From Eledone cirrhosa (lineage: Eukaryota), in NCBI GenBank assembly GCA_964016885.1, contig OZ024742.1, positions 248,682,001 to 248,746,000 of the forward strand: a stretch of 64,000 bases of DNA. The letters run 5' to 3'. This document shows, in pieces, positions 34,361 to 60,656 of this stretch (positions are counted from its first letter, which is position 1; each line of letters begins with the position of its first letter). The notes under the pieces are model-generated. The model did not search any database, was not told the origin of the DNA, and was given only the letters and a program-made list of their open reading frames with translations. Both the position numbers and the translations under genes were made by a program.

Positions 34361-34967
34361 AAATACCATTTAATATATACGTTTCTCTATGTGAGTACAT
34401 TAATTTTCCACTTGAGTACAGTAAACGGATATGCAACAGATAATAAACTTGCACTGAATAACGAACTCTAAACAGTCATAATAAAAGAACACATCATATA
34501 TATATTCGTATATATATATATAAACATATATATAAATATATAAGTAGAAGGGGGATTTAATTTGTTGGAAGTCCGACAAATAAAAATGTTTATAACTGAT
34601 TTAGAGCACTCAACTGTATACTAGAGTAAATATTTAATGATATTAAATAAAAGGAAACTATATTTATAAAAGCATATTTATATAAATATATATATATATA
34701 TATATATATATATATATATATATATATATATATATGTGTGTGTGTGTGTAAGTATGTATGTATACGTACATATATATATGTATACAGACGTACAGTAGTA
34801 TGTATATATATACATACATGCACACATATATATATATGCACGTATCGGTTTACCGAACATTTATTATAATGCTCGGTTTGTTTGTTTGTAAACAAACAAA
34901 CAGCCCGAATTACGCCGTACAGTGTTTAGGAAACCACGTCACCTTTTTGTTCAGCATTGACACAGGA

Positions 34968-35010
34968 ACGATGTACTAGTTTCAAGCTTATTTGATATCG
35001 TCAGCATCGT
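34968..35010 (-). ncRNA. Minimal type I hammerhead ribozyme
   Basis: ACGATG CTGACGA TATCAAATAAGCTT GAAA CTAG TA CATCGT: 6-bp stem I, palindromic stem III, stem II mutated. Confidence 0.7.
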
Positions 35011-35329
35011 ATACCTTCCTGCCAAATGGTTGAACGTCTGAAAGTATATACTTTCCTTATGCATATTAACGGCTGAGCAGCCTAATTTGCATATCGAGTA
35101 AGTTCAGTCGGCCGGGCGCACCGAAAACGATAAATGGAATAGAATGAAACGAAATTTCATTTCTCACTCTTAGTACGGCACTTACTTAAATGTAAGTATG
35201 TATGTATACGTACATACGGTGCGCCCGGCCGACTGAATTCACTCGATATGTAAATTAGGCCACTCAGCCGTTAATATGCTTAAGGAAAGTATATACTTTC
35301 AGACGTTCAACCATTTGGCAGGAAGGTAT

Positions 35330-35372
35330 ACGATGCTGACGATAGCTAATAATCTTGAAACTAGTACATCGT
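35330..35372 (+). ncRNA. Minimal type I hammerhead ribozyme (mirror copy)
   Basis: ACGATG CTGACGA TAGCTAATAATCTT GAAA CTAG TA CATCGT. The consensus of both copies gives stem II AGCU-aaua-AGCU. Confidence 0.7.
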
Positions 35373-35654
35373 TCCTGTGTCAGTGTTGAACAAAAAGGTG
35401 ACGTGGTTGCCTAAACACTGTACGGCGTAATTAGGGCTGTTTGTTTCTTTACAAACAAACAAACCGAGCATTTTAATAAATGTTCGGTAAACCGATACGT
35501 GCATATATATATGTGTGCATGTATGTATATATATACATACTATTGTACGTCAGTATACATATGTGCGTATACATACATACATATTTACATTTAAGTAAGT
35601 GCCGTACTAAGAGTGAGAAATGAAATTTCGTTTCATTCTATTCTATTTATATAT

Positions 35655-36277
35655 ATATATATGAAAATATGGGTGAGAAGAATACTGCTGATTGCACATG
35701 GATAAAATGTTATAAAATGAGTCCCTCATCAGTGATTTACCAAACGATCATGGGTATTTCATCGCATTAAAAATCATATACCTCACGTTGGAGCGATAAT
35801 AACTAAAATAAGTTATTAGGACAATAGAAACGCGTAAAGCGAGTGAGACAAGTAAACAGCACAGGGGGAAGCTAACCGAAGATGGAAATAAACATAAGCA
35901 ACATAGTTATTCTTTCAGCATAAGCTGTGTGAATATATGAGCGAGTCAGAAAACAGACCTTTCGCTAGTGAATCCGGTGTTAGAAAGAATGAAAACCGTT
36001 TTCCCAGCGAACGGGAGGAAGAAAGAAGGGGAGAAACAGGGACTGAGTGAGTGGGAGTGCGAGGAAGAGGTCAGTAAAGAGAAAGAGTTAACTGACATGG
36101 TAGAGGGGACGAAAGAAAGTAAGCGAAACAGAGAGAACGAGGGAGCAGTAAGAGAGAAAGAGAGAAACACAGAATTGCAGTTTGGGTAAATATATGAAAA
36201 TATGGGTGAGAAGAATACTGCTGGTTGCACATGGATAACATGTTATAAAATGAGTCCCTCATCAGTGATTTACCAAA
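35655..36277 (-). repeat. 533-bp unit with an ~85-bp terminal direct repeat containing CTGATGA
   Basis: 35661-35745 is repeated at 36194-36277. Another copy in opposite orientation lies at about 55900-56340, and a diverged relative at about 33590-33780. Confidence 0.7.
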
Positions 36278-36367
36278 AACAGATTAAAGTTCAAGTAAAA
36301 AATCACCCTCTTTGGATTTTAGTCTTCACATTTGTTATAATTACAATATATATATATAAACAGTATA

Positions 36368-36680
36368 GACCACTTTCGGTCTCGAATGACCATGGGATTA
36401 GCACATGGAAAGTTCCCCTCCGAGGCACACGTCCGGTCAAGATTGTTTGTGGTAAACCAGCAGTCGCCCATGCCACCGATGTTTTCTAAGGGAAAAACAA
36501 TGGCTGGTACAGCTTGACACTAGTGACGGCGTAACTCATTTCTGCAGCTGAGTAAATTGGAGCAATTTGAAAATAATGTGTCTTGCCCAAGCACACAACG
36601 CATCAACCGCTACGAGAATCAAACTCACAACCTCCTGATTTCAGGCTCAATGCTTTATCTACTAAGCCGCGTGCCTTCAC
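36368..36680 (-). mobile_element. tRNA-derived SINE, second family
   Basis: Minus-strand head GTGAAGGCACGCGGCTTAGT..GAGTTTGATTCTC and TTGGGCAAGACAC. Paralog at 56695-57022; head fragment (+) at about 46231-46365. Confidence 0.7.
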
Positions 36681-57435: not shown

Positions 57436-57480
57436 GCTTACAATGTTTCTTCCTTACGTAACTGTAGGATTCGTCAGAGC
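57436..57480 (-). ncRNA. Minimal type I hammerhead ribozyme
   Basis: GCT CTGACGA A TCCTAC agttac GTAAGGA A GAAA CA t TG TA AGC. Confidence 0.6.
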
Positions 57481-58149
57481 TATAAAAGGGGTTTGATTGG
57501 TGTTATGGACTCTACCAACCAAACATTCAAGAACAAAGAGTAAAGAGAGTAAAGAGCAAAAGTAGGGGACGATAAGTCTAATTTTGGTGCGGGAGAGTGG
57601 GGTGTGGGTCCTTGTTTACTAGCTGCGGTCATATTCATTCCCGGGAGTCGGGTGGTTAGCTGAACCATAGATGGGGTGGCGTCGATAGTATGGTGCAGAG
57701 GGTGCGCAGAGGCTACACAAACACAAAGGGCATACAATATATATATATATATAGCGGAGGAGAAAGTACATGAGGTAATTAGAAATGGAAAAAGAGTAAT
57801 AATAATAATCTATAATTAATAGTGTATAATAAGGCATGGGGAAGATTACACTATAATAAGGTATAAAAGTAAGAATAAGGTAAAATATAAAGGAGGATAA
57901 AATTGGAAATAATAAAGATAAAAAAATATATAGAGAATATATAAAGAAATATAAGCGAATATTTGGAGGGGAAAACACAACGTAAAAAAAAAAAAAACGA
58001 TTTTTTTTTTCAAATAATAATAAAAATATAAATATAATAATTATGGGGGGAGAAAACGGGATAGAGAAATATGATCAAGTGTGATTAGTTGAGAGAATAT
58101 AAGATGATAATAGTTATGTCAAGTTTATACATCTTAATAATTAATAATC

Positions 58150-59050
58150 TGTGTATCAGAGTTGCAGAACCTTCAATTCACTTACGGGTTCAAGCCACGT
58201 GGCATGGTTCATTGTTTACCTGTGCGGTCATGTGCGTTTGTTTTTGACACCACAGCAGATGCACAAGTTCGTAAATTCCTATACAGATAGAAATCTATTT
58301 TTGCTCACCCGGACATTGACGGAGGATCCAATATTCCTAGTTCAATATGTGTGTGGTGTTATTTTGGTCGCACAAATCAATCACTTGGTTCAATATTATG
58401 GAGTAGGGTTTTCTGGTCTTCGTAACAGTGTCAGTGGTTGTATATCTGGAAATCACAAGGATCACAGTACTCCGGTTTGGTGTGATTATCGGTCATCCAG
58501 CTATGTTGTTGGTGGTTGGATTCAATTCTATTCGCCCGAACGTTGAACTTTGGTGTCGATAGGACATTAACGATATAGTTATATTAATATATATTAATAT
58601 AACTATATTCCCCTGCCTCAAGTATCATGTATTCTTTTGAGTAATGGTCAAACCAGTTTCAAACTGAATACGTCCTGATATATATATTCTCCATGTGTGT
58701 TTATTTTCATAATTCCGCACGAGGTGCACTCGCCTGCTTTTAAATTCCCTTTCCGGCATATTTTAGCAATGGATGGGTATCATGTTTTGAGCTCTACTGA
58801 TGAACGACTCCAACCGTGACTATTCCCACTGAAATGTTTCGTGAAATAGTCTTGTTTAAGACTATATAGAGCATTTGTAGTTTTTCCAATTTGAAGGATG
58901 AGTATTTGAACTTTATTTTATTCTGATTTAAGACTCTATTGGTTTTTTCCCGGATTTCACAAAATCTGTGGATAAAATGTCTGTCTTGACTTTTTTTTTT
59001 AAATTGAGTTTGAATTATTTTCCCATATCTTACGTTAGATATTTTCCATC
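58150..59050 (-). mobile_element. Possible highly decayed PLE coding remnant upstream of the 57.4-kb HHR
   Basis: Only short motifs (HFIHRF, HP.H.., RRPEN) and its position 5' of an HHR; weak support. Confidence 0.3.
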
Positions 59051-59456
59051 TTGACGTTATAGTCACTTATATATTATGAAATACTGTTGGCTTCTACCTC
59101 ACATTAATTTCTCTATTTTCATTTATATATATATATATATATATATATATATATATATATATATATATATATATATATATGTGTATATATGTGTGTGTGT
59201 GTGTACATACATGTGTTTGTGTGTGTCGGGGAGAGGTAGGGGTATTTGTGTTTTCCTTCTCGTTGTTTCCCGATTGTAATTCCGTGAGTAATTACTTGTT
59301 GGATGAGAAGCTTGTTAGTCAATTAACTATGTAACACTATCATAATTAGTTACTGATGATATAGCAACAGCAGCAGCAACAGTAGTGTCGTTAGTGACAG
59401 TAGAAACAGTAGCTAGTTAATCAGAACAGAAGCCGAAGAGTAGTGGGTATATACAC

Positions 59457-59810
59457 ACACACACACAACACACACATATATATATATATATAATCACATA
59501 TACATATATATAAACATATCTCTCTCTCTATATATATATATGATTATATATATATATATGATTATATACATATATATATATATATAAATATATATATATA
59601 TATACATACATATTTATATATATACGTATATATATATTTATATATATACGTATATATATATATATATATTCATATATATATATATATATATATATATATA
59701 TATATATATATATATATATATATATATATATAATCATGTATATAGAGAGAGAGATATGTTTATATATATGTATGTGTGATTATATATATATATGTGTGTG
59801 TGTTGTGTGT
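59457..59810. repeat. Inverted repeat around a degenerate (TA)n core
   Basis: ACACACAACACACACATATA..TAATCACATATACATATATATAAACATATCTCTCTCTCTATA is mirrored at about 59731-59810. Confidence 0.8.
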
Positions 59811-60115
59811 GCATGTATGTATATATAAATATATATACATTCGTATTTATGCATGCGTATATATATATATCGAGGAATCTAGGAGTAGTTTAGGTATGAT
59901 ACATTTTATTACTAATTATATCTAAATGTTTCTTCTCTCTTCATAATATATATATATATATATATATATATACGCATGCATACATACGAATGTATATATA
60001 TTTATATATACATACATGCACAAACATGAGTATGTACATGCATACACCCATCCGTCTATCGCCATATACACATGTCCGTGTGTGTGTGTATATATACACA
60101 TGTATATATATATAT

Positions 60116-60656
60116 GACAAACATAGAATATTCGAAAATATTCTGTATGTTTATAATAAACATTTTGAAGACCCAATCGCTATAGAATAGAATACGTCAC
60201 GTATTACAATTTGAGATTCTCGATAAAAGCAAGGGAAGTAACCTACGCGTTTCATTCTTATTAGAAATCATCAGGATTACATATCCAATGCTTTTATCGA
60301 GAACGACACAGCTAGAGACTTATAGAATACTTAGCTGTGTACAGGAACTGGTTTGAAAGAGCGGTACCCGGTCCGGCAGAAATTAGAATTTGGATTTAAT
60401 GCTCTGAAATAGCGATATATATGTGAAGACAAACATAGAATATTCGAAAATATTCTGTATGTTTATAATAAACATAATGAAACGCGTAGGTTACTTCCCT
60501 TCCTTTTATCGAGAATCTCAAATTGTAATACGTGACGTATTCTATTCTATAGCGATTGGGTCTTCAAAATGTTTATTATAAACATACAGAATATTTTCGA
60601 ATATTCTATGTTTGTCTTCACATATATATCGCTATTTCAGAGCATTAAATCCAAAT
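60116..60656. mobile_element. Retrozyme-like 312-bp unit: about 1.15 tandem copies (-) plus an inverted partial copy (+)
   Basis: 48-bp direct repeat 60116-60163 = 60428-60475. 60476-60656 is the reverse complement of the unit, starting inside the HHR. (TA)n on both sides. Confidence 0.8.
60238..60280 (-). ncRNA. Minimal type I hammerhead ribozyme
   Basis: GTAATC CTGATGA T TTCT aata AGAA T GAAA CGCG TA GGTTAC, with palindromic stem III and GUA site. Confidence 0.8.

Follow-up and report, generated by a model that had tools for sequence, protein, structure and literature searches.

Four loci within a 64,000-nt stretch of the genome of the cephalopod Eledone cirrhosa (GenBank assembly GCA_964016885.1, contig OZ024742.1, positions 248,682,001 to 248,746,000 of the forward strand; hereafter, the window) belong to four dispersed, non-coding repeat families, A to D, whose units of 312–539 nt carry a hammerhead motif. 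We found that the copies of each family have two fixed 3' end positions, and that a two-armed insertion uses one of these positions in each arm. We consider it probable (roughly 0.6) that the four families are inserted in trans by enzymes of Penelope-like elements (PLEs) copying one RNA, probably a monomeric circle.

All four loci lie where an initial annotation, made from the letters of the window, had placed them, with periods of 444 (A), 453–455 (B), 525 (C) and 312 bp (D), and each consists of a minus-strand direct arm joined 5'-to-5' with a plus-strand inverted arm (Table 1). The terminal redundancies of the window copies are 26 (A), 129 (B), 32 (C) and about 50–54 bp (D), and the inverted arms measure 434, 174, 74 and 181 bp, respectively. 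The annotated layout of slightly more than one tandem copy fits these window copies, whereas arms across the families span from about 30 nt to 22 units. Its claim that both 3' ends abut (TA)n was largely borne out, since TA-type repeats flank the outer ends of all four loci (several TA runs being just 12–18 nt), except that the left end of A meets a short (TG)n first.

Two 3' end positions in each family

Counted in unit positions from the predicted cut site, the 3' ends (sites 1 and 2) lie at 226 and 286 in A, 140 and 212 in B, 174 and 261 in C, and 132 and 166 in D, and the spacing of the two sites equals a tail of 34–87 nt (60, 72, 87 and 34 nt, respectively). We examined 150 non-redundant loci (30 of A, 27 of B, 30 of C and 63 of D); the A, B and C loci were the top-scoring matches, and 34 of the D loci were taken in order of position along one contig. 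The layout was two-armed and head-to-head in 105 loci, single-armed in 44 and complex in one. Both ends were assignable in 92 head-to-head loci, of which 89 had mixed sites, two had site 2 at both ends and one had site 1 at both ends (binomial test for one site per arm, P of about 3e-23); in the remaining 13 head-to-head loci, an end lay elsewhere. This pattern supports the proposal of the initial annotation that two cDNAs are primed on opposite strands and then joined.

As a prospective check, 40 D loci were chosen by their site-2 junction alone. The partner ended at site 1 in 27 of them and elsewhere in four, one partner was scored as site 2 (its outer segment ends at site 1), and eight loci were without a partner within 60 nt. 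Exact patterns for the two D junctions gave 127 and 145 matches; among the 100 matches listed for each pattern, 36 opposed mixed pairs and no opposed same-site pair were counted by eye. TA-rich flanks were present at 173 of 210 arm ends, compared with a background of 8–15%. At three loci (L017, L039 and L171), 3' ends adjoin (CAT)n instead of (TA)n.

The 5' ends of the arms, on the other hand, are scattered. The permutation points had been expected to vary from copy to copy, but mapping the ends of each copy gave two fixed 3' sites per family, and free circular permutation of the 3' ends was therefore rejected. Terminal redundancy arises because 5' truncation is random while the 3' ends are fixed. 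Priming by long TA homology alone was rejected as well: at site 1 of D, 52 ends were joined before the internal AT run and 23 kept the run, and the start of reverse transcription therefore looks position-set.

The same rule of one site per arm is followed by two coding PLEs in this genome. PLE1 has a 784-aa open frame in a 3531-bp unit, with copies that are about 100% identical (L193–L208, e.g. G000:C1:437198000-437214400); its arms end at position 31 or 114 of the unit, and its two-armed loci, at least 15, are all mixed; its tandem arms reach 4.5 units. PLE2 encodes 714 aa in a 4310-bp unit (L209–L226) with a hammerhead in its terminal region, and its ends at about 1995 and 2067 are used one each in 5/5 two-armed loci. 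Both appear to be Neptune-like, a label that follows motif order and the published description; Pfam and PDB searches gave no match for the PLE proteins. The suggestion in the initial annotation that PLE machinery is involved thus gains support, because PLE1 and PLE2 have the same footprint, (TA)n flanks and tail. The terminal region of PLE1 also has, by eye, a hammerhead-like fold with a U3-A8 core in place of C3-G8, and a fold-back in the window (44175-44414) matches a terminal piece of PLE2.

The families and the template of each insertion

First-look searches of the genome gave 2535 (A), 1456 (B), 3025 (C) and 475 (D) candidates, of which 39–40 per family were scored, and the exact D hammerhead pattern gave 574 genome matches. 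Family D is young, its copies being 97–100% identical, and the C unit measures about 539 nt family-wide. Tandem arrays reach 22 units in D, seven in B and about 2–3 in A, but only about 1.7 in C (30 loci). Coding capacity is nil: the longest Met-started open reading frame (ORF) across A–D is 34–73 aa, and the GC content is 35–42%. No ORF with reverse transcriptase (RT) and GIY-YIG domains was found inside or joined to the units, and A–D are non-autonomous. Circular folds of the sense strand, compared with 30 shuffles, gave z values of –8.6, –3.8, –4.7 and –4.3 for A to D, and the antisense strand folds equally well in A and D. The families thus have the sequence traits of non-LTR retrozymes (a tandem unit with one motif per unit, non-coding, low in GC, dispersed and self-paired), in keeping with the description of retrozyme-like non-coding units in the initial annotation. 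They may also resemble non-LTR retrozymes in their working, with PLE-like hammerheads and with cleavage and circles as predictions. Family B includes subfamilies with periods of 449–468 bp (e.g. G000:C4:314596146-314597079). A 310-bp D subfamily, 95% identical, forms a two-armed array adjoining a coding PLE end (L205:1-1268), and a more distant D-like two-armed element (about 75%) adjoins an A copy (L034:1900-2280).

We then compared variants within family D over 122 loci, counting positions covered three or more times and excluding the duplicate L126. In 102 two-armed loci, the arms agreed at 139 of 141 derived-allele sites, compared with about 12% when arms were shuffled. Variants were present in every copy of both arms in 129 cases and were mosaic (in both arms, but not in all copies) in seven, with 266 singletons; 20 fixed variants were private to one locus, with examples in 12/12 and 8/8 units. 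The predicted ribozyme cut site was crossed by 170 of 206 arms, 100 of them crossing it at least twice, which upholds the earlier view that the template is longer than one unit. A length change at the crossing was seen in 0/395 cases, and 5' ends did not pile up at the cut site (five, compared with 6.6 expected). The 5' positions of the two arms were uncorrelated (within 20 nt in 12/103 loci, 13.5 expected). The mean overlap at 77 filler-free junctions was 2.4 nt, compared with 0.75 in an exact-match simulation, and 26 junctions carried filler. The shared haplotypes, seamless crossings and uncorrelated 5' ends fit two primers on one monomeric circle, and oppose template jumping and fold-back priming. 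Contigs of runs X1–X5 hold close relatives of D. One 342-nt contig of X4, a run of unrecorded kind, equals one unit plus a 30-nt overlap; it was not used as evidence because tandem DNA, multimeric RNA or a circle would all yield such a contig. No X1–X5 contig spans the fold-back of the window.

We therefore propose the following course of insertion. Genomic multimers would be transcribed, cut by the hammerheads and ligated into circles. A PLE protein with RT and GIY-YIG domains, likely a dimer, would nick an AT microsatellite on both strands. The two free 3' ends would prime reverse transcription of the same RNA, one from site 1 and the other from site 2. Each cDNA would run a variable distance around the template before the two cDNA ends were joined through microhomology or a few filler bases, and the arrays might later gain or lose units. 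Twin priming by PLE enzymes on one template is very probable in our judgment; that this template is a monomeric circle, itself predicted from sequence, is held with clearly less assurance but still seems the better supposition. The strictest form, in which a PLE dimer primes both broken (TA)n ends on one small RNA circle with its subunits obligately at different fixed sites, has about an even chance.

Among other explanations, twin priming on an uncleaved linear multimer transcribed from a donor array, with unequal DNA exchange and homogenization rebuilding the arrays, is a serious but less likely alternative. It would accommodate the lability of unit number, the multimeric arms of the coding PLEs, and the chance that the minimal helix III motifs of A and D cut poorly. 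A few in-register variants are shared by the two arms without reaching every unit (L139, L152, L159 and L251), as it would predict; three of these cases, however, fall at the recurrently mutated positions 187/190. Moreover, the units of such a donor should transmit mosaics, yet fixed variants outnumber mosaic ones 129 to 7, and private variants fixed in up to 12/12 units of both arms need a one-unit bottleneck. Jumping of RT between cleaved linear monomers would likewise impose that bottleneck, and PLE RTs are related to telomerase, but the unchanged length at all 395 crossings, the lack of 5' ends clustered at the cut site and the retention of one haplotype in each array make it very improbable.

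We give slightly less credence still to an inverted arm made when one strand folds back and primes itself, a mechanism put forward for rotifer PLEs in the part of PMC3846280 compared here. A few D junctions do lie inside an internal hairpin near positions 92–125, whereas the uncorrelated arm 5' positions speak against it, and either arm may be the longer one and hold the tail absent from the other. The least probable of these explanations holds that the units are solo terminal repeats of coding PLEs, later amplified as satellites, or that faulty assembly produced the fold-backs. Terminal repeats do characteristically have fixed ends and hammerheads of the PLE type, and local expansion of PLE terminal repeats (pLTRs) is proposed in a preprint (10.64898/2026.07.22.740005). 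The units, however, run head-to-tail without an ORF between them, and none of the 44 single-armed copies had a sense PLE ORF joined to its 5' end (two PLE protein queries, 1.1–3 kb searched), the nearest PLE ORF lying 247 nt off across a TA tract. As for artefacts, the arms of A and C differ by 5–8%, and the two arms stop at different fixed sites, unlike a read fold-back.

Several observations weigh against insertion by PLE enzymes from a monomeric circle. The RNA circle and self-cleavage are predictions from sequence, and the hammerheads of A–D are atypical and score under Rfam thresholds. A–D are without a nucleotide match to PLE1 or PLE2, so that the candidate helper was not found among these two; a degenerate hammerhead pattern used in the helper search gave four matches. 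PLE1 forms an arm of 4.5 units of 3.5 kb, and multimers are therefore not peculiar to small circles. In the part of PMC11167929 compared, unprocessed RNA was the main PLE substrate in vitro and ribozyme mutants inserted normally. Unit number shifts after insertion, as at L126 and L159, segmental duplicates of one D insertion that lie 470 kb apart and have 4.05 and 3.05 units in one arm, and arm-specific repeated variants occur at L121 and L166. A single active donor at a time, or gene conversion from arm to arm, could mimic the sharing of haplotypes. Locus-fixed variants showed no excess of A>G editing (five, compared with four T>C), although these counts are small, and the use of the best-scoring A, B and C loci biases the sample to long copies.

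Hammerhead motifs and other features of the window

The initial annotation had assigned one type I hammerhead to each unit, and indeed the CUGAnGA...GAAA...UH motif occurs once in each. Core positions are almost invariant over 37–160 copies per family. It had also called the four units unrelated; they are separate families, but A and D have a common hammerhead design, and B and C have another as well as a weak tail motif. The A and D design is minimal: helix II has U.U at its base, the loop reads AAUA, helix III is palindromic and the site is UA; A differs from D by compensatory changes in helices I–III. In the B and C design, the core is followed by an A and helix III is long; the G10.1-C11.1 pair is G-C plus an extra A in B, while the helix II base in C is A.C in 28/39 copies and A.C or A-U in the family. 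As far as the consulted parts of these publications go, PLE hammerheads may have extra bases at this core-adjacent position and a palindromic helix III (PMC4209133), and U10.1-U11.1 is among the natural hammerhead variants that are tolerated (PMC3088659).

Hammerhead activity of A–D is a prediction. Rfam scores were below the gathering scores for B (22.9 bits versus 34) and D (20.6 versus 52), with no hammerhead match for the A or C units; a whole-window Rfam scan, dominated by microsatellite matches, gave no hammerhead among the 150 of 225 matches listed. None of the four units matched a strict hammerhead motif because of an extra or mismatched base at helix II. A motif scan of the window gave five hammerheads, compared with 0–1 in each of 10 shuffles, and misses the window copies of A and C, whose helix II is imperfect. 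The minimum-energy fold is a hammerhead in B only. The inverted arms of B and C in the window are without a hammerhead, and that of D has the 3' half only. Loop II of family B (window 44640-44656) contains a sequence almost identical to that of the 3' strand in helix III, and an alternative, inactive pairing could thereby form.

Table 1. Positions in the window of the A–D loci, their flanking repeats and pieces of coding PLEs.
Feature	Position	Strand	Remarks
Family A direct arm, 444-bp unit + 26 bp	34747..35216	-	3' end at site 1 (226 from predicted cut site)
Family A minimal hammerhead motif	34968..35010	-	predicted cut after 34974; two helix II changes versus family majority
Family A inverted arm	35217..35648	+	3' end at site 2 (286); tail is final 60 nt, 35589-35648
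Hammerhead motif of inverted A arm	35330..35372	+	predicted cut after 35366
(TA)n then (TG)n, left of A	34674..34746	.	short (TA)n right of A at about 35649-35662
Family B direct arm, 453-455-bp unit + 129 bp	44463..45043	-	3' end at site 1
Family B hammerhead motif	44595..44676	-	extra A after core, long helix III, UC site; predicted cut after 44603
Family B inverted arm	45044..45211	+	3' end at site 2; tail 45140-45211 (72 nt)
(TA)n left of B	44436..44462	.	short (TA)n after 45211
Family C direct arm, 525-bp unit + 32 bp	51730..52286	-	family unit about 539; 3' end at site 1
Family C hammerhead motif, B-like design	51895..51977	-	predicted cut after 51902
Family C inverted arm	52285..52354	+	entirely within 87-nt tail; 3' end at site 2
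(TA)n left of C	51530..51729	.	
(TA)n right of C	52355-52372	.	common to C and 3' end of PLE2 fragment
Family D direct arm, 312-bp unit + about 50 bp	60116..60475	-	3' end at site 1
Family D minimal hammerhead motif	60238..60280	-	U.U at helix II base, CGCG helix III, UA site; predicted cut after 60244
Family D inverted arm	60476..60654	+	3' end at site 2; tail 60621-60654 (34 nt)
(TA)n right of D	60655..60948	.	short TA run before 60116
PLE1 pieces	354-558, 21132-22187, 22824-22940, 23967-24100		
PLE2 pieces	52373-53078, 8089-8243		first piece internally deleted, TA tract common with unit C

Outside A–D, a well-formed type I hammerhead motif with a long helix III lies at 58791-58872 (plus strand), and 8426-8996, 9724-10009, 15489-15688 and 20710-21134 hold another family of fold-backs, whose minimal hammerhead motif has its core at 8674 on the minus strand. 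The window also contains a long interspersed nuclear element with endonuclease and RT domains and a frameshift near its 3' end (28056-30814, plus strand), and four copies, at 94–96% identity, of a roughly 600-bp repeat (11678-12080, 39331-39933, 45444-46048 and 48671-49264).

Relation to known elements and significance

In twin priming of L1, two target-primed cDNAs are joined 5'-to-5' by microhomology; the internal site at which the second primer anneals varies, and the arms are without sequence overlap. In A–D, by contrast, the two start sites are fixed and each arm copies the same unit again.

Comparisons with published elements are limited to the parts of each source cited. Metazoan non-LTR retrozymes resemble A–D in being non-coding, low-GC tandem units of a few hundred nucleotides with one type I hammerhead each (PMC7229834), and in ranging from monomers to long arrays alongside PLEs. 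Their mobilization by PLEs was proposed by Cervera and de la Peña (2020, PMC7229834), and a vertebrate link by co-occurrence and pLTR homology was given by Li, Clavereau and Pollet (2026, 10.64898/2026.07.22.740005); in A–D, the link is instead the insertion footprint, without pLTR homology to PLE1 or PLE2. Circles and cleavage are shown for published retrozymes, whereas A–D are known from their DNA, and their hammerheads look more like those of PLEs than like the canonical form. The compared portions of the retrozyme papers describe no two-armed insertions, no fixed pairs of 3' ends and no microsatellite targets, and the words 'inverted' and 'microsatellite' give no matches in that of PMC7229834.

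Published PLE insertions, in the portions compared (Craig et al. 2021, PMC8557442; Arkhipova et al. 2013, PMC3846280), share with A–D partial tandems, an adjoining inverted 5'-truncated copy, a head-to-head arrangement, a tail at one end and a preference for (TA)n. A–D, however, encode nothing, their tails measure 34–87 nt compared with 30–40 in published PLEs, and a strict count of one site per arm does not appear in those portions. The non-coding, PLE-dependent Chlamys elements such as MRC1 (PMC8557442) likewise form multicopy head-to-tail insertions, but usually resemble an autonomous family at the 3' end and belong to a clade without canonical hammerheads. Circular templates yielding copies longer than one unit were proposed for PLEs in a 2014 publication, as far as the part compared goes. 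In vitro, the RT of the Poseidon PLE of Anolis nicks and extends both strands, and two internal start sites bound the tail (Frangieh et al. 2024, PMC11167929). As in our model for A–D, these start sites are not set by homology and a dimer is predicted; unlike in A–D, no difference in start site between the strands was seen, and cleavage was unnecessary. Circles and non-autonomous RNAs lie outside the tests in the part of that study compared.

The form had been thought possibly undescribed. The head-to-head layout, one-end tail and (TA)n preference are already known for PLEs (PMC8557442), but the paired-end rule was not found in retrozymes. A squid genome paper counts 235 hammerheads, without analysis in the part compared, and openly accessible main texts yielded nothing on cephalopod retrozymes, two-armed retrozymes or paired retrozyme start sites; material relevant to novelty may lie in the supplements of PMC8557442 and of the 2026 preprint. 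Thus, the PLE-type layout and retrozymes are known, whereas the rule of one site per arm and the genomic case for a monomer template are new.

In the literature compared, PLE enzymes and circular templates are proposed, but not shown, for the return of animal retrozymes to DNA. A–D carry the PLE footprint directly, with one fixed start site per arm and one haplotype per insertion, and what the window contributes is a set of four neighbouring families, two coding PLEs as controls and the counts. The young family D, with its short unit (312 nt), shares this genome with an intact coding PLE that has near-identical copies, so that the choice between circle and multimer and the origin of the PLE tail are testable at the bench. 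If true, a single step of double rolling-circle reverse transcription would explain the tail of PLEs, the head-to-head arms and the multimers of retrozymes, and would serve parasitic and coding elements alike.

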